DNA from: an uncultured Bacteroidales bacterium
GTDB taxonomy: Bacteria > Bacillota_I > Bacilli_A > ML615J-28 > CAG-698
Direction: 5' to 3'
Length of the DNA stretch: 64,000 nucleotides
Assembly (NCBI GenBank): GCA_964407835.1
Contig: CAYOXB010000001.1
Location: forward strand, 45,174 to 109,173
Each line of letters opens with the position of its first letter. Positions within the stretch are counted from its first letter, which is position 1. Made by a program: the position numbers and the translations under genes. Below the pieces are notes generated by a model that saw only the letters and a list, made by a program, of their open reading frames with translations, did not search any database and was not told where the DNA came from. Of the stretch, positions 15,097-59,505 are shown in pieces.

Positions 15097-15107
15097 AATT
15101 ATTGTAA

Positions 15108-15272
15108 ATCTTCAGGGCAGGGTGAGATTCCCGACCGGCGGTAAAGTCCGCGAGCTTGAAAGAGCATGAATTGGTGAAACTCCAATACCGATAGTATAGT
15201 CTAGATGAAAGAAGAGCTATATTTAATATGCTTTTTTTTGCTCGCGAAGTTTTTTCGCGAGTTTTATTTTTT
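15108..15272 (+). promoter_or_regulatory. FMN riboswitch (RFN element) with terminator expression platform
   Basis: Matches the RFN consensus: 'cagggcagggtgagattcccgaccggcggtaaagtccgcgagc...ggtgaaactcc...ccgatagtatagtctagatg'. It is followed by the hairpin 'ctcgcgaagttttttcgcgag' plus TTTTATTTTTT (15241-15271). Confidence 0.85.
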
Positions 15273-15291
15273 AAAAAGAAAGAGGGTTATT

Positions 15292-16185
15292 ATGTTTTTA
15301 AGTAGTTTTTGGCAAGATCATTGGTTAGAAATTAGTGTTTCTACAGTGTTTGTGCTAGCAAGTATTGCTTTACTTGTTGCACTGGTTATTAATATCGGAA
15401 AGCAAGAAACAAGCAAAAAAGTCTATGTAATAGGAAGTTTTATATTTGCACTTGTATTGTTCAGTGTTAACTTCTTTATTTATAAAGATTATAAGAATGC
15501 ATTGAGTCAAGACCCGACTACTGAATTTCCACTTGCAAATGTTTTTGCATATAATGCACTTATAATTATTGCATTTTCTCTAGTTGGTTACTTAGTTATC
15601 TCAAGGAGGAATAAAGAAGAAGAAAAAATGACAGTTGCTAATGTTGCAATGTTAAGTTTATTAGTAGCACTATCAACAGTATTGATGTTGTTTGGAATAC
15701 CAATACTACCTGGATTTACATTTTTAAAAGTTGAAATTAGTGCTTTAATTTATTTCTTAGTTTATTTGTGGTTTGGAATAAAACCAACAACGGTAGTCAT
15801 TTTTCTTACAAATATAATTCATGCTATTATGCCATCATTTGGTGTTCAAATTGTACCTGGACTTGATCAAATGGTAAATGTTATAGCAGTATTTACATTT
15901 TTGTTTCCTTCATTTATTGCATTTAGGAAATTAGAAGAAGGAGAAGTTCCACCGTTTAAATCTGTTTTAGTTTGTACTATAATAGGCGTTGTGTTTACTT
16001 CAGTCTTTATGCTTTTATATAATTACTTTATAAATTTACCACTTATTTATGGTATGAATATGTCATTTGAGGATGTGCTAAAAATATTTGGGTTATTTAA
16101 TATTATAAAATGGAGTACTGTTAGTGCTGCCATAGTATTACTATACAAAAAACTATATGAATTGAAGAATCAATTAGTAAGATAA
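15292..16185 (+). CDS. Membrane protein, putative riboflavin transporter (ECF S-component/RibU-like C-terminal half)
   Basis: RBS AAGAAAGAGGG before ATG 15292. The protein is multi-TM. The ORF-track start at 15205 lies inside the riboswitch and is rejected. Confidence 0.6.
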   Translation: MFLSSFWQDHWLEISVSTVFVLASIALLVALVINIGKQETSKKVYVIGSFIFALVLFSVNFFIYKDYKNALSQDPTTEFPLANVFAYNALIIIAFSLVGYLVISRRNKEEEKMTVANVAMLSLLVALSTVLMLFGIPILPGFTFLKVEISALIYFLVYLWFGIKPTTVVIFLTNIIHAIMPSFGVQIVPGLDQMVNVIAVFTFLFPSFIAFRKLEEGEVPPFKSVLVCTIIGVVFTSVFMLLYNYFINLPLIYGMNMSFEDVLKIFGLFNIIKWSTVSAAIVLLYKKLYELKNQLVR

Positions 16186-22967: not shown

Positions 22968-23029
22968 TCAATAAGATTGACAAGGAACAAAAGAAGTTGT
23001 ATAATAATTAATATAAAACTGTGAAGTGG

Positions 23030-23236
23030 ACAAGATTAATAAAATTTTTATTTATAGCGAAAGTATGATAGTGAAAGATACTTAATAAAACTTATTAGTT
23101 ACTACCGTGGAGTTGAACTCGAAAGAGATTCCGTTATTCAGCGTTAATGAAATTGAGCGCAGTAGTGTTTTTAAACACTATTGAATTAAGGTGGTACCAC
23201 GTTATAATACGTCCTTTTTAGAAGGGCGTTTTTATT
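23030..23236 (+). promoter_or_regulatory. T-box leader (Thr) upstream of thrS
   Basis: Conserved T-box 'aattaaggtggtaccacg' (23184-23201), then the terminator cgtcc/tttttagaa/gggcg plus a T-run (about 23208-23236). Stem I region with ACU/ACC candidates ('ttagttactaccgtgg'). Confidence 0.8.
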
Positions 23237-23251
23237 TTTTAGGAGGATAAT

Positions 23252-25162
23252 ATGAAAATTAGTTTTTTAGATGGAAGTGTGAGTGAATATAAAGATGGCC
23301 TAAGTGCTATGGATATTGCTAAAAGCATATCTCCATCTCTAGCAAAGAAATCAATATTTGCTAAAGTAAACGGTGAAGATTATGATTTGAACAGACCAAT
23401 ACTAGCTGATGCAACACTTGAATTAATTACAAAGGAGAGAGTTGAAGCTTTAGAAGCTTTGAATCATTCTTGTAGTCATTTACTTGCAAGTGCTGTTAAG
23501 AAATTATATCCGAAGGCACAATTTGGAGTTGGTCCAGCAATTGAAGAAGGATTCTATTATGACATTAATCCTGGGGATAATGTTAAGATAACTGAAGCTG
23601 ATCTAGTTAAAATAGAAGATGAGATGAAGAAAATTGCTAGTAAAAATTATGATTTTATTCGTGAAGAATTATCAAAAGAAGAAGCTTTGAAGAAGTTTTC
23701 TTATGATAAATACAAACAAGAAATTATAAATGAACTTGAGGATGGTGTAGTTATTTCTACATACACTCATGGGGATTTTTCTGATCTTTGTAGAGGACCG
23801 CATTTAGATAATACTAAGCATTTAAAATATTTTAAATTACTTAATATTAGTGGTGCCTATTGGAGGGGAGATTCTAAAAATGAGCAGCTTCAAAGAATAT
23901 ATGGAACATGCTTTTTTAATCAAGAAGATTTGAATAAGCACTTAGAAGTATTAAAAGAAAGAGCTGAGAGAGATCATCGTAAACTTGGGCGTGAGCTTGA
24001 ATTATTCATGTTAAGCGAATATGGTCCTGGCTTTCCTTTCTGGTTACCTAAGGGTATGATTCTTCGTAGAGCACTAGAAGAATACTGGTTCAAGGTTCAC
24101 ACTAGAGAAAATTATCAGTTCATTCAAACTCCAATTATGCTTAATAAAGACTTATGGGAGATATCAGGACACTGGTTAAACTATAAAGATAATATGTATA
24201 TTTCAGAAATTGACAAGCATGAATTTGCGATTAAACCGATGAATTGTCCTGGAGGATTGTTGGTATATAAACACTCCCTACACTCATATAAAGACCTTCC
24301 TCTTAGAGTTGGTGAACTAGGATTAGTTCATAGACATGAAGCAAGTGGGGCTTTAAATGGCTTATTTAGAGTAAGAAACTTCACTCAAGATGATGCTCAT
24401 ATCTATATGAGAGAAGATCAAATTATCGATGAAGTAGGAAATTTAATTAAATTATTTGATGAAATTTATTCAGTTTTTGGTTTGAAATATCACATTGAAT
24501 TATCTACAAGGCCTGAAGAAAAGTATATTGGGTCTATCGAAGTTTGGGATAAATCAGAAAAAGCACTAGCAAAAGCATGCGAAGCAGTAGGAAAAAATTA
24601 CAAAGTAAATCCTGGTGATGGAGCGTTTTATGGACCTAAATTAGACTTCAAATTACGCGATTCAATGAATAGAGTATGGCAATGTGGAACTATTCAGCTA
24701 GATATGAATTTACCAGAAAGATTTGATATATTCTATATTGGTGAAAATGGTGAGAAGGTTAGACCAGTTATGCTACATAGAGCTATTTTTGGTTCGCTTG
24801 AAAGATTTATTGGAATTTTAATTGAACATTATGGTGGAGCTTTTCCAACATGGCTTGCCCCTGTACAAGTAAAACTAATTCCGGTTAATAATACTTATCA
24901 TTTAGAGTATGTAAATAAAGTGAAAGATATTTTATTAGATGCTAATATTAGAGTAGAAGTAGATTCTAGAGAAGAAAAATTAGGCTATAAAATTAGAGAA
25001 GCACAAACTAAGAAAATACCTTATCAATTAATTATTGGTGATAATGAGGTTAAAGAAGAAGTTTTAACTTATCGTGCTTATGGTAAGCAAGAATCAGTAA
25101 CTTTATCTATTCTCGAATTTGTGGAAAAAATTCAAAAAGAAATTAAAAACTTAGGTCAATAG
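23252..25162 (+). CDS. thrS: Threonine--tRNA ligase
   Basis: TGS domain, editing domain with 'HSCSHLLA', and class II core. Confidence 0.97.
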   Translation: MKISFLDGSVSEYKDGLSAMDIAKSISPSLAKKSIFAKVNGEDYDLNRPILADATLELITKERVEALEALNHSCSHLLASAVKKLYPKAQFGVGPAIEEGFYYDINPGDNVKITEADLVKIEDEMKKIASKNYDFIREELSKEEALKKFSYDKYKQEIINELEDGVVISTYTHGDFSDLCRGPHLDNTKHLKYFKLLNISGAYWRGDSKNEQLQRIYGTCFFNQEDLNKHLEVLKERAERDHRKLGRELELFMLSEYGPGFPFWLPKGMILRRALEEYWFKVHTRENYQFIQTPIMLNKDLWEISGHWLNYKDNMYISEIDKHEFAIKPMNCPGGLLVYKHSLHSYKDLPLRVGELGLVHRHEASGALNGLFRVRNFTQDDAHIYMREDQIIDEVGNLIKLFDEIYSVFGLKYHIELSTRPEEKYIGSIEVWDKSEKALAKACEAVGKNYKVNPGDGAFYGPKLDFKLRDSMNRVWQCGTIQLDMNLPERFDIFYIGENGEKVRPVMLHRAIFGSLERFIGILIEHYGGAFPTWLAPVQVKLIPVNNTYHLEYVNKVKDILLDANIRVEVDSREEKLGYKIREAQTKKIPYQLIIGDNEVKEEVLTYRAYGKQESVTLSILEFVEKIQKEIKNLGQ

Positions 25163-39882: not shown

Positions 39883-41025
39883 ATGAAAGAACTAAAAGGT
39901 ATTAAAGGAAAAATTTATGTTGAAGGTAGGGGCATTATTGAAACTACTGTAAGCATAAAAAATGGAAAAATTAGTGCAATAGGCGAAGATGGTGACTTTT
40001 ATAAACTAGAAGCTAACCAAATCTTAGTTCCAGGTTTTGTTGATAAACATATTCATGGAGCTAATAGTAGTGATGCAATGTATCCTACTGAAAAAGATAT
40101 TCTAAATATTGCAAAAACGATTGCTAAAGAAGGTGTTACTAGTTTTCTTCCTACCACAATGACTCAATCAGTTGAAAACATTAAACTAGCTCTTGCAAAT
40201 ATAAATGAGTATATGAAGAAAAATCATCATGAAGGTGCAGAAGTTTTAGGAATCCATTTAGAAGGACCATTTATTAATAAGATATATAAAGGAGCTCAAC
40301 CAGAACAATATATAATTGATTGTGATGTAGAGTTATTTAAGGAATTCGAAAAAGCAAGCGGAGGTAACATTAAACAAGTTACTCTAGCATATGAACAAAA
40401 TGGAAAAGAATTAACAAAATATTTAGCTTCTAAAAAAATAGTTCCAAGTTTGGGCCATACAAATGCAACAGCTAAAGAAGTTCTTGAAGCAGCAGCAAAT
40501 GGTGCAACTAGCCTAACTCATTCTTATAATGCAATGAAACCACTTCATCACCGTGAAGCGGGGACAATAGGTGGAGCATTTCTTGCTGAGGAAATGTATG
40601 CGGAAGTTATTACAGATTTAGTTCATGTATCAAAAGAAGCAATTCAAATCCTATATAAGATAAAAGGAAAAGATAAACTTGTTGTTATTACAGATGCAAT
40701 GGAAGCAAAGCATTTGCCTGATGGAAAATATAAACTAGGTGGTCAAGATGTTTTTGTATCTAACAATGAAGCAAGACTTGCATCTGGTGCTCTTGCAGGA
40801 AGTGTTCTTAAAATGGATGATGCAATAAGAAATGTAAAAGAAGTTTTAGGAGTATCTTTAGAAGAAGCAATTGATTTTGTAACTATTAACCCAGCTAGAA
40901 ATATCTTTGTAGATGATAGAAAAGGATCCATTGCATTAGGTAAAGATGCAGACTTTGTTGTAATTGATGAAAATATAAATATTTATAAAACAATTCGTCA
41001 AGGTGAAGTCGTTTATAATAAGTAA
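39883..41025 (+). CDS. nagA: N-acetylglucosamine-6-phosphate deacetylase
   Basis: Amidohydrolase 'PGFVDKHIHG' and 'HLEGPF'. Confidence 0.85.
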   Translation: MKELKGIKGKIYVEGRGIIETTVSIKNGKISAIGEDGDFYKLEANQILVPGFVDKHIHGANSSDAMYPTEKDILNIAKTIAKEGVTSFLPTTMTQSVENIKLALANINEYMKKNHHEGAEVLGIHLEGPFINKIYKGAQPEQYIIDCDVELFKEFEKASGGNIKQVTLAYEQNGKELTKYLASKKIVPSLGHTNATAKEVLEAAANGATSLTHSYNAMKPLHHREAGTIGGAFLAEEMYAEVITDLVHVSKEAIQILYKIKGKDKLVVITDAMEAKHLPDGKYKLGGQDVFVSNNEARLASGALAGSVLKMDDAIRNVKEVLGVSLEEAIDFVTINPARNIFVDDRKGSIALGKDADFVVIDENINIYKTIRQGEVVYNK

Positions 41026-54613: not shown

Positions 54614-55762
54614 ATGTTTGATGTTATTTTATTAATTGCTGGAAAAGGCAAGAGAACAAAATTAGATTATAATAAAACTCTATACTTGATTAATGATAAA
54701 CCTATATTTAAGTATTCACTTGATATCTTTTTAAAGATGAAAGAATTGAATAAGGTTGTTTTAGTCATTGATAAAGAAGATGAAGATATTGTAAATGAAT
54801 ATATTAAAGATATAAATTCTAATAAAATTGAAATAGTATATGGTGGACTTGAAAGACAAGATAGTGTAAAAAATGGAATCGATAAATGTTCAAGCGATGT
54901 TGTTTTAATTCACGATGGTGCAAGAGCATATATAGAAGAAGGACAAGTTCAAAGTGTTTATGATAATGCTAGAAGATATAATGCTTCTGCTTTAGCAGTA
55001 AAAACTACGGATACTATAAGAGAATTAAAAAAAGGCTCTTCAAACATTGTTGATCGCAATTTACTTTGGAATATGCAAACGCCACAAGGTGTTAATTTAC
55101 AGATGTTTAAAGAAGCTCTTAAAAAAGCATATGAAGATAATTATTATGGAACAGATGATTTAAACTTACTTGAAAAATATTTTGATATTGTACCTAAGCT
55201 TGTAGAAGGAAGTAAAAAGAATCTAAAATTCACAACAATTGATGATTTAGATTATTTAAAATTTATATTAGGAGAGCAAAAGATGGAATATAGAATAGGT
55301 CATTCTAATGATACTCATCGTTTAGAGGCGGGAAGAAAGTTAATCTTAGGTGGAGTTGAGATAGACTATCATTTAGGGCTAATTGGTCATTCTGATGCTG
55401 ATTGTATTTATCATGTTGTAAGCGAAGCTATTATAGGTGCTCTAGGACTTGGTGATATTGGAAGTCATTTTCCGGATAATGATAAAAAATACAAAGATCA
55501 AGACTCTAGTTATTTTGTTGTTGAAGCAAGGAAGTTAATGGAAAAGGAATTATATATTATCAATAATTTAGACTTGATTGTTTATGCAGAGAATGTTTAT
55601 TTAAACCCTCATATAAATACAATAAGAGATAATATTGCGAAGCTTTTGATCTGTGATAAATCAAGAATTAATATAAAAGCAACAAGAAGAGAAAAGCTAG
55701 GGTTTGTTGGTAGAGAAGAAGGAATATCAGCTGAAGCAGTAGTTTTGCTGAAAAAGAAGTAA
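54614..55762 (+). CDS. ispDF: Bifunctional MEP cytidylyltransferase / MEcPP synthase (IspDF)
   Basis: IspD N-half 'ILLIAGKGKR'. IspF C-half 'RIGHSNDTHRL...GHSDADCIYHVVSEAIIGALGLGDIGSHFPD'. Confidence 0.9.
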   Translation: MFDVILLIAGKGKRTKLDYNKTLYLINDKPIFKYSLDIFLKMKELNKVVLVIDKEDEDIVNEYIKDINSNKIEIVYGGLERQDSVKNGIDKCSSDVVLIHDGARAYIEEGQVQSVYDNARRYNASALAVKTTDTIRELKKGSSNIVDRNLLWNMQTPQGVNLQMFKEALKKAYEDNYYGTDDLNLLEKYFDIVPKLVEGSKKNLKFTTIDDLDYLKFILGEQKMEYRIGHSNDTHRLEAGRKLILGGVEIDYHLGLIGHSDADCIYHVVSEAIIGALGLGDIGSHFPDNDKKYKDQDSSYFVVEARKLMEKELYIINNLDLIVYAENVYLNPHINTIRDNIAKLLICDKSRINIKATRREKLGFVGREEGISAEAVVLLKKK

Positions 55763-55803
55763 ATATAAAATCATTAAGTAAAACGTTTACATTTCACTTT
55801 ATC

Positions 55804-55833
55804 TTGATATGGTAGTTTTCTAAATGATATAAT
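55804..55833 (+). promoter_or_regulatory. Promoter of the leader/ABC transporter operon
   Basis: -35 TTGATA, an 18-nt spacer, extended -10 TGATATAAT. Confidence 0.5.
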
Positions 55834-55856
55834 GATAAAAACTAAAGGAGTAAATT

Positions 55857-55922
55857 ATGACTAATATAATTATTAACAATTATTTTTACTTTTACTTTTT
55901 TCCAAGAGGATGTCATGTTTAG
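55857..55922 (+). CDS. Candidate leader peptide MTNIIINNYFYFYFFPRGCHV (21 codons) with 7 consecutive Tyr/Phe codons
   Basis: Strong RBS AAAGGAG 6 nt upstream. The codon run is tat ttt tac ttt tac ttt ttt. Lies in a 333-nt 5' region ahead of the ABC transporter. Confidence 0.5.
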   Translation: MTNIIINNYFYFYFFPRGCHV

Positions 55923-56043
55923 AACGCTCTTGGCTTTTTCTGGTAAGAAGTAAGTCATAATTTAGTTAGTGTTATTACATGATATCTATTTTAAACAAAG
56001 GTTAAAATAGTAAAAGTAATAACAACAACAAATGAAAAAACAG

Positions 56044-56080
56044 ATTGTGTTATTACTAAGGTATAGCACAATTTTTTTAT
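56044..56080 (+). terminator. Attenuator terminator upstream of the ABC substrate-binding gene
   Basis: Hairpin gattgtg/.../cacaat plus TTTTTTTAT. Upstream segments 'gtgttattac' (55969-55978) and 'gtaataacaac' (56016-56026) can pair alternatively with its 5' arm. Confidence 0.45.
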
Positions 56081-56095
56081 TATAAGGAGGTTATT

Positions 56096-57082
56096 ATGAA
56101 TATTAAAAAAATTATTATCTTATTATTAGTTTTACCACTTGCAATTTTGGTTGCTGCTTGTGAACAAGACGATCGAATTCAAATTGGTATTTTACAACTC
56201 ATAGAGCATAATGCTCTAACAGCTGCAAAAGATGGTTTCATTGATGGATTAGCTGAAGCTGGATATGTTGATGGCGAAAACATCACTATTACTCTTTTAA
56301 ATCCTCAAGGTGATGATGGTGTAATGGCTCACAGCAGTAAAAAACTTGTTAGAAAATCAGATTTGATTCTGGCAATTGCAACGCCTGCAGCACTATCTGT
56401 TGTGAACGAAGCTGAAGATCAAAAGAAAAATGTTCCTATTTTATTTACTGCAGTAACAGATCCAGTTAGTGCTGGTTTGATTGCTAGTAATGAAAAACCA
56501 GGTGGAAATGTTACAGGAACAAACGACATGAACTCTGTAGAGTTACAAATAGGCTTAATTAAGGAACTACTTCCTGAAGCAACAAAAATAGGTATTTTAT
56601 ATACATCAAAAGAACCTAACTCTAAAATCCAAGCAGATATGGCAGTAGAACATGCAGAAAGCTTAGGATTAGAAGTTGAAGTTAAAACAATTGCTGATGT
56701 AAACGAATTACAACTTGCTGCAAGTTTACTTGCAAGTTCTGTTGATGCAGTATATATCCCAACGGATAATACTATTGCAGCAGATATGGGAACAATTAAC
56801 AATGTTGTACTTGATAAAAAGGTTCCGTTTATAGTTGGAGAAACTAATATGCTTTATGCTGGTGGAAGCGCTACTTACGGTATTGATTATTATAGATTAG
56901 GTAAACTTACTGCTGAGATGGCTGTTCAAATCTTGAAAGATGGTAAAAATCCTAAAGATATACCATGTGTAGGTTTAACTGATTTCGCATTAGTTATTAA
57001 TAAAACACAACTTGATGCGATTAACCTTGTTATTCCTTCTGTTCTTTTAGATAAAGCAGATGAAATAGTAGATGATAAATAA
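56096..57082 (+). CDS. ABC transporter substrate-binding lipoprotein, COG2984/PF04392 family
   Basis: Lipobox 'LVAAC'; 'IQIGILQLIEHNAL...AIATPAA' is family-typical. Confidence 0.8.
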   Translation: MNIKKIIILLLVLPLAILVAACEQDDRIQIGILQLIEHNALTAAKDGFIDGLAEAGYVDGENITITLLNPQGDDGVMAHSSKKLVRKSDLILAIATPAALSVVNEAEDQKKNVPILFTAVTDPVSAGLIASNEKPGGNVTGTNDMNSVELQIGLIKELLPEATKIGILYTSKEPNSKIQADMAVEHAESLGLEVEVKTIADVNELQLAASLLASSVDAVYIPTDNTIAADMGTINNVVLDKKVPFIVGETNMLYAGGSATYGIDYYRLGKLTAEMAVQILKDGKNPKDIPCVGLTDFALVINKTQLDAINLVIPSVLLDKADEIVDDK

Positions 57083-58008
57083 TGGGAGTTTTAGATACAA
57101 TCAGATTGATATTACAAGATGGATTAGAGACAGGTCTGATTTGGTCTATAATGGCTCTTGGAATATTTATATCTTTTAGAATATTAGATTTTGCAGATTT
57201 ATCTGCAGAAGGTTCGATAATTTTAGGTGGTGCCATAAGTATGAGTTTAATTCTTAAAGGCTATAACCCCTGGATTGTTGTATTGGTATCTTTTCTAGGG
57301 GGATTTATTGTAGGGGCAATCACTGGAATACTACATACAAAATTAAAGATTGTTCCAATTCTAGCAGGTATAATAAGCATGACCGCCCTGTATCCTATTA
57401 ATCTTAGGATACTGGGGTCTGCCTCAGTAACACTAGGCCCAAGTAGTCAATACAGTACAGTATATACTAGATTGATTAATCTTATGGCAACTCCTGCTTT
57501 CGCAAAAATTATTACAACTATATTAATTGTAGTTGGTTTGTTTTTCCTTCTTTATTGGTTTTTTGGAACTGAAATTGGAATTAGTTTAAGAGCAACTGGT
57601 ATGAATAAAGAAATGTCTAGAGCTCAAGGAATTAACACTGATATTATGGTTATTTTAGGGCTAGCATTATCAAATGCTTTAATAGCTCTTAGTGGGTCTT
57701 TATTAGCACAAAGTAGAAGAAGTTCGAATTTGGAGTTTGGAAGAGGAACTATTGTAGTTGGGCTTGCTTCAATTATTATTGGTGAAGCTATTTTTGGAAA
57801 GAGAAGTTTTAAGATAGCTTTGATATCAGTAATAGTAGGAAGTATAGCTTTCCAAATTATAACAGCAACTGCTCTTGGTTTAGGATTCCCGCCAAATGAT
57901 TTTAAATTAATTCAAGCAATTTTAATGGTTCTTATTTTAGCTTTTCCTCTTTTAAAGAATTTAATAGAGAAGCATAAAAAGGTAGGCGTTGATAATGTTA
58001 AAGATTAG
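57082..58008 (+). CDS. ABC transporter permease (COG4120-like)
   Basis: Multi-TM. Translationally coupled (ATAATGG) to the substrate-binding gene. Confidence 0.8.
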   Translation: MGVLDTIRLILQDGLETGLIWSIMALGIFISFRILDFADLSAEGSIILGGAISMSLILKGYNPWIVVLVSFLGGFIVGAITGILHTKLKIVPILAGIISMTALYPINLRILGSASVTLGPSSQYSTVYTRLINLMATPAFAKIITTILIVVGLFFLLYWFFGTEIGISLRATGMNKEMSRAQGINTDIMVILGLALSNALIALSGSLLAQSRRSSNLEFGRGTIVVGLASIIIGEAIFGKRSFKIALISVIVGSIAFQIITATALGLGFPPNDFKLIQAILMVLILAFPLLKNLIEKHKKVGVDNVKD

Positions 58009-58798
58009 GAATGTTACAAAAGCATTTAATAAATCATTAAACCCAGAAGATTTAAAGATAGCTTTAAATGATATATCTTTAGATATTAAAGAAGGAGAAT
58101 TTATTAGTGTTATAGGAAGTAATGGTAGTGGAAAATCTACTTTACTTAATGTTATAAGTGGTTCTTTATTTGTAGATAAAGGTGAAATTATTATTGATGG
58201 TAAGGATGTTACCCATACGAATGAATGCAGAAGATCAAAGCATGTAGGGTTTGTATTCCAAGATCCACTTAAAGGAACTGCAGCTAATATGTCTGTTTTA
58301 GAAAACTTACTTATCGCTCACAGAAGAGCAAAGAGAAAAACTTTGAAATGGGGATTTAATAAGCATTTAGCTGAAGATTTTAAAAGAAGAGTTAAAGAAT
58401 TAAACTTAGGTTTAGAAACAAGATTAAATCAAAAAATAGGGCTTTTGTCTGGAGGACAAAGACAAGCATTAACTCTATTAATGTCTACTTTAGATAATCC
58501 AAGTATATTATTATTAGATGAACATACAGCTGCACTTGATCCTAAGACTGCAAAATCAGTATTAGAACTAACAGAAAAAATTGTAATTGACAATAACTTA
58601 ACAACGATTATGGTAACCCATAATATGAAAGATGCTCTTAGATATGGCGATAGACTATTGATGTTTAATGAAGGTAAAATAATAGTTGATGTTTCTGGAG
58701 AAGAAAAAAGCAGATTAACAATTAATGACTTACTTAAAATGTTTGAAGGTGCGAATGTAGAAATATCCGATCAAATGCTTCTTGCGAAAGGAATGTAA
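57989..58798 (+). CDS. ABC transporter ATP-binding protein (COG1101-like)
   Basis: Walker A 'GSNGSGKST', signature 'LSGGQRQ', Walker B 'LLLDEHT'. Confidence 0.85.
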   Translation: MIMLKIRNVTKAFNKSLNPEDLKIALNDISLDIKEGEFISVIGSNGSGKSTLLNVISGSLFVDKGEIIIDGKDVTHTNECRRSKHVGFVFQDPLKGTAANMSVLENLLIAHRRAKRKTLKWGFNKHLAEDFKRRVKELNLGLETRLNQKIGLLSGGQRQALTLLMSTLDNPSILLLDEHTAALDPKTAKSVLELTEKIVIDNNLTTIMVTHNMKDALRYGDRLLMFNEGKIIVDVSGEEKSRLTINDLLKMFEGANVEISDQMLLAKGM

Positions 58799-59120: not shown

Positions 59121-59505
59121 AATAAAATTTGGAAAAACATTTTATTTTGCATCTTTAGTTGTTGCAATTACAATATTTATTGTTGGGAAAGTGTTGCTTT
59201 TAAAGGATGAAACATTAGATGAAATTATAAAAATGAAGTATTCATTTATAATTCATTTATTAGTTTTTGCAGTAATAACACCAGTTGGAGTAGTTATAAG
59301 AGAGTATATGCTTCTAGCATACAAGCGTAATATTATGTTAATAAAGATAGCTTTTATTGCTGTAATGACGATAGTTAGTGTTATTACTTTACTAGGTAGT
59401 GAGGCTCAAACTCTGTATACATTGCTTACATTTTTAGCTTATGGTGTATTGATTGTTGCTTTAATACCGAGTAGTTCTTTTCAAAAGAAAACAGATCAAC
59501 AATAA
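59104..59505 (+). CDS. Small membrane protein (4 TM)
   Basis: Hydrophobic segments. Followed by the terminator aaataacgcat/ttta/tgcgttattt (59507-59535). Confidence 0.5.
   Translation: MSETNKIKFGKTFYFASLVVAITIFIVGKVLLLKDETLDEIIKMKYSFIIHLLVFAVITPVGVVIREYMLLAYKRNIMLIKIAFIAVMTIVSVITLLGSEAQTLYTLLTFLAYGVLIVALIPSSSFQKKTDQQ

Follow-up and report, generated by a model that had tools for sequence, protein, structure and literature searches.

The region upstream of a predicted amino acid importer operon raises the question of whether a short open reading frame (ORF), rich in tyrosine and phenylalanine codons and lying ahead of an intrinsic terminator, allows the translating ribosome to decide if the operon is transcribed. 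The region lies in a 64,000-nucleotide (nt) stretch of contig CAYOXB010000001.1 (assembly GCA_964407835.1, positions 45,174 to 109,173), which was analysed as a whole and is referred to below as the window. Three genes form one operon here, encoding a substrate-binding protein (SBP) of family PF04392, a PF02653 permease and an ATP-binding cassette (ABC) ATPase, and the same gene order is found in orthologous loci whose DNA extends that far. An original prediction, made from the letters of the window, had proposed a leader-peptide attenuator with aromatic codons and a switch of three segments and a terminator, upstream of an aromatic amino acid importer, and this proposal is supported by every computational test applied. 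The element is considered, at a probability of about 0.8, to be a ribosome-mediated leader-peptide transcription attenuator that senses charged tRNA-Tyr (here also tRNA-Phe) and controls a tyrosine ABC importer resembling CD0873 of C. difficile. The case is suggestive on this one sequence and is made strong by comparison across orthologous leaders.

Leader reading frame and its orthologues

The elements of the window on which the argument depends are as follows.

55804..55833, + strand: extended -10 promoter of sigma-70/sigma-A type (TTGATA, 18-nt spacer, TGaTATAAT)
55844..55850, + strand: Shine-Dalgarno (SD) sequence of the leader, AAAGGAG
55857..55922, + strand: leader ORF, 21 codons and stop codon TAG, peptide MTNIIINNYFYFYFFPRGCHV
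55881..55901, + strand: regulatory codon run, codons 9-15, Tyr-Phe-Tyr-Phe-Tyr-Phe-Phe (tat ttt tac ttt tac ttt ttt)
55902..55933, + strand: hairpin P1, CCAAGAG (55902-08) with CTCTTGG (55927-33), enclosing segment X and the stop codon and followed by CUUUUUC
55908..55918, + strand: segment X, GGAUGUCAUGU, codons Gly-Cys-His-Val, 5' strand of the long-range helix X:A2
55942..55964, + strand: segment Z, GGUAAGAAGUAAGUCAUAAUUUA, complementary in its 5' part to the end of the Tyr/Phe run (55891-55900) and in its 3' part (55953-64) to the leader start (55851-62)
55969..55978, + strand: segment A, GUGUUAUUAC (gtgttattac), partner of B and proposed anti-antiterminator strand
55977..55987, + strand: segment A2, ACAUGAUAUCU, 3' strand of X:A2, overlapping the end of A and the start of P3
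55986..56010, + strand: hairpin P3, CUAUUUUAA with UUAAAAUAG, between A and B, present in the minimum free energy fold
56016..56026, + strand: segment B, GUAAUAACAAC (gtaataacaac), partner of A (OFF) or of C (ON, putative antiterminator)
56047-56056, + strand: segment C, gtgttattac
56044..56078, + strand: intrinsic terminator, C arm AUUGUGUUAU(UAC) and D arm AUAGCACAAU, then U7
56083-89, + strand: ribosome-binding site of the SBP gene, whose ATG is at 56096
56096..57082, + strand: gene for the substrate-binding lipoprotein of the ABC importer (PF04392, E 1e-74)
57082..58008, + strand: ABC permease gene (BPD_transp_2, PF02653, E 5e-31)
57989..58798, + strand: ABC ATPase gene (E 2e-30)

The good sigma-A promoter, the strong ribosome-binding site AAAGGAG, the 21-codon ORF and the run of Tyr and Phe at codons 9-15 had all been described in the original prediction and are all in the sequence. 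The promoter is one of two 11/12 matches, the top score within the 5.5 kb scanned; the TG is also present, and the extended -10 TGATATAAT is kept in most orthologous leaders. Three copies of the GUUAUUAC/GUAAUAAC motif, together with a hairpin and U7 terminator, lie upstream of the PF04392 importer, with GTGTTATTAC at 55969 and 56047 and its complement GTAATAAC at 56016. The terminator hairpin precedes the ribosome-binding site and ATG of the SBP gene, as had been claimed, its stem being formed by 56044-56053 with 56063-56072, with T7 at 56072-78 and a local energy of -9.6 kcal/mol. A and B are located exactly where they had been placed, whereas C and P1, correctly recognised as sequences, had been given as 56048-56057 and 55904-55935; the slips in the core observation are thus only 1-2 nt. 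Elsewhere in the window, pairs of GTTATTAC at 40606/40684 and 59272/59378 were considered as second copies of the leader and rejected as chance, since they lie within long coding ORFs without the other elements. The copies of GTAATAACAC, GTGTTATTAC and GTTATTAC at 59272-59281, 59378-59387, 40606 and 40684 were likewise judged to be chance occurrences in AT-rich coding sequence.

For the comparison of leaders, DNA around 12 SBP homologs was retrieved, and metagenome contigs were scanned with a pattern (CTTGGCYTTTTC, a gap, then GTTATTACATG) that lies wholly downstream of the usual stop codon of the ORF. The scan gave 11 loci, seven of which yielded six new distinct leaders (L027 being a near-duplicate of L017) and four of which duplicated known ones, and in total 18 distinct orthologous leaders, designated by L numbers, were available. 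One relative of the SBP is 99% identical and many follow at 50-65% identity; those with names are from Acholeplasmataceae or from metagenome-assembled genomes of Bacilli (59-63% identical). A protein search of genome contigs with the SBP gave distant relatives only (Treponema, Binatia and Syntrophobacter), which are 28-44% identical.

An ORF of 18-28 codons beginning with ATG is present in all 18 leaders, and each contains six to eight Tyr/Phe codons, consecutive or nearly so. In 17 leaders an SD-like GGAG, AGGA or GGTG is found 6-10 nt before the ATG, the sequence in L039 being marginal (GAAAGGG). The encoded peptides include MDRVILNNNFYYYYYFLRRCHV, MKPNVSLIAEFYYYYYYFPRGCHV and MNSIICNQFYYYYYLPRRYQS, and also MTSYYYSYQYYYFKEEVM, MLVNFQNKFYYYYYFPRIS and MMKQILLNQFFFFYFQGRYCD. 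This conservation is no artefact of selection, because six of the leaders were found with a pattern downstream of the usual stop. The N-terminal part of the peptide is variable in sequence and varies in length by whole codons, so that the frame is kept. Within the run, variation is confined to TAT/TAC exchanges at the third codon position and Tyr/Phe exchanges at the second, with the first position fixed, which is a coding pattern. Across the 18 leaders the run codons total 52 TAT, 33 TAC, 38 TTT and 2 TTC, and the signal of the family is tyrosine first and phenylalanine second. The aromatic codons of the original prediction therefore stand, with tyrosine as the main residue of the family: the run in the window, with three Tyr and four Phe, is unusually Phe-rich, and together with that of L039, with one Tyr and five Phe, it marks the Phe-rich extreme.

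Segments A, B, C and D and the U-run are kept in all 18 leaders, so that the alignment of orthologous upstream regions that had been suggested as a check recovers both the small ORF with its Tyr/Phe run and the switch segments throughout. At least six different genes are found upstream of the leader loci (IspDF, PTAC, GGDEF, Dtd, QueT and a glycoside phosphorylase), which indicates that it is the transporter, and not the neighbourhood, that the leader accompanies. The leader is not universal, since the SBP homolog P0119 (54% identity, 345 amino acids) has a different upstream region without it.

Several members of the family have features of their own. In L030 (1187-1503 and 2494-2847) and also in L031, two tandem SBP genes each have a complete leader, with the runs FYYYYYL and FFYYFYF. 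In L020 (minus strand) and L025 the usual stop codon is lost and the ORF continues through the 3' arm of P1 to give 28 and 25 codons (...NTLLGFF and ...EKTLI), so that a terminating ribosome would sit further downstream. In L014-L018 a D-tyrosyl-tRNA deacylase gene (dtd), itself after relA, is directly upstream of the leader, which is probably coincidental synteny. The neighbour upstream of the leader in the window (54614-55762) is a fused IspDF gene, with IspD and IspF joined as one protein of 382 amino acids; in the syntenic loci L007, L011 and L032 each of the two has a gene of its own. In addition, the SBP homolog P0002 has 552 amino acids in place of the usual ~325 (46% identity over 90% of the query) and may be a fusion or contain a duplicated domain.

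Helices and alternative readings of the leader

The RNAalifold consensus of the full leaders consists of P1, A:B and C:D. Pairs were counted on a MAFFT alignment that had not been fitted to any structure. P1 (CYAAGAR/YUCUUGG) has 7 base pairs (bp) in 17 of the 18 orthologs, with 98% of cells paired and compensatory changes at two pairs. A:B comprises 10 pairs, 96% paired and eight of them invariant, and C:D with a run of T5-T7 is present in every leader, with changes on both sides at the two outermost pairs, at the base of the stem. B is able to pair with A or C, and C with B or D. Between A and B, the sequence of P3 differs in every leader, and its 5' strand, read directly from the sequences, always overlaps A2; across the 17 leaders that were folded, the energy of the local A-P3-B hairpin ranges from -10.7 to -18.9 kcal/mol.

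The A/B/C switch of the original prediction is retained in this architecture, but the helix that may connect it to the sensor was absent from that account. Segment X, in the last codons of the ORF, is complementary to A2, the sequence immediately 3' of A, over 10-12 bp in 16 of the 18 leaders (L039 being read from the sequence). In the alignment, 86% of X:A2 cells are paired and five pairs have changed on both sides, as in GAUAUCUUGUAA/UUACAAGAUAUC, GAUAUCAUAA/UUAUGAUAUC, GGACGUCAUGU/ACAUGAUGUCU and AAGAUAUUGUG/CACAAUAUCUU. On none of five measures was the observed value reached in 500 shuffles, and sliding the partner by 1-3 columns lowered the pairing to 18-56%. L034, misaligned by MAFFT in X and A2, was left out of the pair counts, and its helix was checked by direct search, which gave 10 perfect bp. 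X:A2 shares nucleotides with A:B and P3 and crosses them topologically, so that X:A2 and the A-P3-B hairpin are mutually exclusive. X:A2 is proposed as the link that couples the position of the ribosome to segment A.

Two further helices involve segment Z. The start of the leader (55851-55862, UAAAUUAUGACU) pairs with 55953-55964 (AGUCAUAAUUUA), 3' of P1, over 12 bp, which was matched in 0 of 200 shuffles. Of the 15 leaders checked, 9 have a corresponding helix of 10-15 bp, which shows compensatory changes in L011, L020 and L025; it is absent in L014, L017 and both copies of L030. It may block re-initiation, so that the leader would be translated only once. A second helix is formed by UUACUUUCC, at the end of the codon run, and GGAAGUAA of Z, and this helix has 7-11 bp in 14 of the 15 leaders checked, for example UUACUUUCCAA/UUGGAAAGUAA, and 4 bp in L030a; that of L039, identified by eye, is UUUACUUUCAA/UUGAAAGUAAA. 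Segments A and C (GU-UAU-UAC) also contain a Tyr-Tyr codon pair, and most orthologs, although not the window, have their heptamer UUAUUAC a further time within the Tyr run. The recurrence could reflect an origin by duplication, or it could provide a third partner for B, which in folds without a ribosome mask often pairs with the codon run.

With so much conserved structure, it is possible to regard the ORF as incidental and the leader as a non-translated RNA, either a riboswitch or the target of a TRAP-like protein on the repeated GUUAUUAC/UAUUAC motifs, that flips the same terminator and antiterminator. The leader of the window folds at -56.9 kcal/mol (z = -4.55 against shuffles), several helices are conserved, the heptamer shared by the Tyr run, A and C resembles a repeated binding site, and the conserved peptide tail proved to be an RNA constraint. 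Nevertheless, an incidental ORF would not be expected to keep an SD-like sequence (marginal in L039), an ATG and an open frame in 18 of 18 leaders through an unconserved N-terminal stretch that varies by whole codons, while the two other frames contain stops in almost every leader; nor would changes in the run be expected to follow a coding pattern. Moreover, no conserved multi-stem junction resembling a ligand pocket is evident, and there is no Rfam match. An RNA acting independently of translation is considered unlikely on this evidence.

A second alternative accepts translation and places the signal in the nascent chain. An arrest peptide of the TnaC or ErmL type (poly-Tyr followed by F-P/L-R-R) would stall on free tyrosine or an antibiotic, and not on the charging of tRNA, and would operate the same RNA switch. 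Most experimentally characterised leader peptides of Firmicutes are of this drug-sensing arrest type. Many members resemble one another in the motif YYYYYF[PL]R[RG], and the tail in close relatives is ...[PL]R[GR]CHV. Distant members, however, have the tails PRRYQS, PRRYLVN, PRIS, KEEVM and QGRYCD, so that the peptide after the run is unconserved (FKEEVM, FPRIS, FQGRYCD, LPRRYQS), while the nucleotides keep P1 and X:A2. The conserved tail (...RGCHV) of the window thus reflects a constraint on the RNA and not on the peptide. In addition, six to eight codons for one or two amino acids are a hallmark of charging sensors, and stalling on free tyrosine would turn the importer ON when tyrosine is high, which makes poor regulatory sense. 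The naming of ermC as an exception among Firmicutes leader peptides (PMC2965389) is in keeping with an arrest peptide, which is nonetheless judged very unlikely here.

Proposed switch and folding tests

In the proposed attenuator, transcription would start at the sigma-A promoter and a ribosome would load on the leader ORF. With Tyr and Phe plentiful, the ribosome would reach the stop codon and cover P1 and X, the last four sense codons. Once X is covered, A, P3 and B could form one long hairpin, leaving C free, and C:D with U7 would then terminate transcription before the transporter genes. If no ribosome is present, P1 and a small inner GUGU:ACAC helix would hold X, and the switch would also be OFF. 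When Tyr-tRNA is scarce, the ribosome would stall in the Tyr/Phe run, opening P1 and leaving X free. The leading edge of a stalled ribosome would lie ~12 nt past its A site, which for the last Tyr codon (55893) corresponds to ~55905, inside the 5' arm of P1 and just short of X. X would then pair with A2 as soon as this is made, A2 being transcribed before P3 and B. Formation of X:A2 would leave B free to pair with C as an antiterminator, blocking C:D and allowing read-through into the transporter operon. From this arrangement we infer ribosome stalling, a kinetic order of folding, pausing at P1 (possibly a pause hairpin) and its CUUUUUC, and a response to tyrosine.

Equilibrium folds of the full leaders with ribosome masks showed no switch, and prefix folds, which resemble co-transcriptional folding, were then used. 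Of the 17 leaders folded up to B, nine showed a rise in the probability of X:A2 from at most 0.31 to at least 0.65 when a ribosome was placed on the last Tyr codon; six others had a likely X:A2 even without a ribosome, and in L006 and L021 the probability stayed low. With the RNA extended to the end of C, the ribosome on the last Tyr and X:A2 formed, B:C had a probability of at least 0.97 in 15 of 18 leaders. Conversely, masking X as by a ribosome at the stop codon gave A:B above 0.5, again in 15 of 18. Folding with constraints, which had been suggested as a check, thus gives the expected states in prefixes, whereas at full-length equilibrium the terminator is favoured.

A number of points weigh against the attenuator and are gathered here. 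At equilibrium the terminator and A:B dominate in most leaders whatever is masked, and with X:A2 forced the full-length RNA still prefers C:D in 15 of 17. The choice made by the switch must accordingly be kinetic, as in classical attenuators. With the ribosome on the first Tyr codon P1 is still able to form, and X:A2 is often unfavoured. X:A2 itself has only 6 ungapped bp in L030a, and in the second copy of L031 a change of 2 nt (ACAAG to ACTTG) introduces two mismatches. A:B, B:C and most of C:D are invariant, hence without support from covariation, although such invariance is expected where one strand must fit two partners. The terminator of the window is weak, with two G-C pairs, and was left uncalled by a scanner that requires at least three. 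Specificity is blurred by the presence of both Tyr and Phe codons, while the residues of the SBP predict tyrosine throughout. Finally, seven Tyr/Phe-type runs of at least six codons occur in the 64-kb window; evidence from the single sequence is weak because such runs are common in its AT-rich DNA, and on the window alone the case for an attenuator is only moderately better than chance.

Substrate, upstream box and relation to known systems

The predicted substrate of the importer matches the tyrosine-dominated leader. The best structural relative of the SBP in the Protein Data Bank is CD0873 of C. difficile (6HNI, E 3e-59), followed by SP1069 of S. pneumoniae (3LFT) and VC_1101 of V. cholerae (3LKV), which bind Tyr, Trp and Phe, respectively (PMC6816091). 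In CD0873, Glu-263 hydrogen-bonds the hydroxyl of tyrosine and is replaced by Ala in SP1069 and VC_1101, and Tyr-279 excludes Trp and is replaced by Gln in the Trp binder (PMC6816091). The SBP of the window has Glu (in VGETN) and Tyr (in GIDYY) at these two positions, as have 115 of 120 SBP homologs, whereas Ala and Gln are aligned there in the Trp binder 3LFT. The regulated importer is therefore predicted to be tyrosine-specific and not to import Trp. According to the original prediction, comparative genomics suggests that this ABC family imports tryptophan or other aromatic amino acids under T-box control in some Firmicutes. T-box-controlled relatives do exist, the streptococcal TrpXYZ being controlled by a Trp T-box (PMC9382623), but tryptophan import is not expected here.

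Upstream of the promoter, a possible further input was found.

55778..55790, + strand: cre-like or LacI-type box GTAAAACGTTTAC, ~13 nt upstream of the -35

This box occurs once in the window and resembles a CcpA cre or an operator of the LacI family (core AANCGNTT). Orthologs have GTAAGCGTTTTC at the equivalent position, which is shared by L006, L008, L014, L017, L019, L024, L025, both copies of L030, L032 and L034. Among promoter strips anchored on the -10, all 14 that were long enough have the box 12-15 nt upstream of the -35, despite differing upstream genes. The conservation points to an additional input that acts on transcription of the operon, and a transcription factor may act at the box in addition to the attenuator. 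It could also be argued that the box exerts the main control, with the attenuator setting a basal level, or that the leader reports a general slowdown of translation or its coupling to transcription; the presence of the box in every ortholog readable there and the wide variation of the Tyr:Phe ratio between species are compatible with this. Such a general sensor would, however, need no homo-codon run, and no codons other than those for Tyr and Phe make up the run in any of the 18 leaders, while the SBP carries tyrosine-specific residues, which together make this explanation highly improbable.

A more elaborate version of the attenuator, which is speculative and on balance doubtful, would combine several of these elements. 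A and C would be copies of the regulatory codon pair (GU-UAU-UAC, Tyr-Tyr), and B, with three partners (unoccupied Tyr codons, A and C), would read the occupancy of the run directly. The helix sequestering the start codon would limit the decision to a single pioneering ribosome, and sensing of Tyr or Phe could be retuned by single A/U changes at the second codon position without disturbing the switch, alongside the cre-like box. If correct, this self-templated relay would constitute a compact multi-input controller of aromatic amino acid import in genome-reduced relatives of Mollicutes.

As to known RNA families, a T-box as the identity of the leader is ruled out by covariance-model search of the leader and of orthologous loci, T-box RF00230 not being found in the window leader with the Rfam 15 models at E up to 10. 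When 55700-56200 was compared by cmscan with the full set of 4227 Rfam 15 families, at the same threshold, only five chance-level matches to unrelated families were obtained, and four orthologous loci gave no match at gathering score. With the same library, a T-box leader was detected elsewhere in the window, at 23012-23219 (103 bits), upstream of an ORF of 636 amino acids (23252-25162); its specifier triplet, as aligned, appears to be ACU (Thr), as would suit a threonyl-tRNA synthetase. The organism would thus use T-boxes as well as a leader peptide. An FMN riboswitch is located at 15104-15220 (108 bits), directly upstream of, and slightly overlapping, an ORF of 326 amino acids (15205-16185).

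The attenuators of Proteobacteria (trpL, pheL (pheA), pheM (pheST) and his) likewise consist of a short translated ORF with a run of regulatory codons, the position of the ribosome selecting among hairpins that exclude one another and lead up to an intrinsic terminator, with a hairpin overlapping the end of the ORF. The leader of the his operon is a six-segment relay (A:B, C:D and E:F versus B:C and D:E, in its own lettering), and it is the closest in mechanism, both being relays of more than three helices. In contrast to these classical systems, the leader described here has no similarity to them in sequence or structure (no Rfam match), its codons are mainly for tyrosine, and it precedes an importer in place of a biosynthetic operon or tRNA synthetase. 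Its host, judged by the names of homologs, is an Acholeplasmataceae-like member of the Bacilli/Mollicutes, and most members of the family add a helix pairing the leader start codon with a downstream segment.

The original prediction had described leader-peptide attenuation as rare in Firmicutes, and amino acid leader peptides are indeed rare there, with His leaders as predicted precedents in the Bacillus cereus group, Peptostreptococcaceae and Erysipelotrichales (PMC2965389, PMC9413887). Those His leaders, like the present family, are known from comparative genomics alone (PMC2965389, PMC9413887); they have 3-5 His codons, precede his biosynthesis genes or hisS paralogs and are unrelated in sequence, whereas the present family has Tyr/Phe codons and precedes a transporter. 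TrpXYZ (TrpX of S. suis, PMC9382623; SP1069 of S. pneumoniae, 3LFT) belongs to the same ABC family, with PF04392 SBP, PF02653 permease and ATPase, and appears to share the logic by which the cognate tRNA, when uncharged, brings about antitermination and thereby more importer. Its sensor is a T-box RNA that binds tRNA-Trp directly, whereas in the present system the ribosome would read the charge of the tRNA, and its specificity residues are of the tryptophan type (Ala/Gln) and not of the tyrosine type (Glu/Tyr). One transporter family would thus be under tRNA-charging control by two devices. CD0873 (6HNI-6HNK, PMC6816091) is the closest solved homolog and shares Glu-263 and Tyr-279, to which its tyrosine selectivity has been attributed (PMC6816091), at an identity of only ~40%.

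The leader has the features of the attenuator class, namely a conserved ORF with SD and ATG, a cluster of the sensed codons, an intrinsic terminator, exclusive helices and genes related to supply of the amino acid, the last by homology only. Comparison gives good support to its being a new family of a known mechanism, lying outside every Rfam family. It had been thought undescribed, and in the literature, coverage of which was incomplete, no description of it was found, nor any tyrosine leader peptide or leader-peptide control of the PF04392 transporter family. It would add to the short list of amino acid leader-peptide attenuators outside Proteobacteria and Actinobacteria and, as far as could be found, is apparently the first attenuator built on tyrosine codons and the first before the PF04392 transporter family, a task for which related bacteria use a T-box. 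Moreover, on regulatory grounds it points independently to tyrosine, and perhaps phenylalanine, as what the CD0873-like clade of PF04392 transporters imports. Its compactness (~240 nt) and its covarying sensor-to-switch helix would make it a convenient system for the study of transcription-translation coupling in low-GC Gram-positive and Mollicutes-like bacteria. Coupling in such bacteria is debated, the RNA polymerase of B. subtilis having been reported to outrun the ribosome, and a ribosome-dependent attenuator that works in this group would be of direct relevance to the debate.

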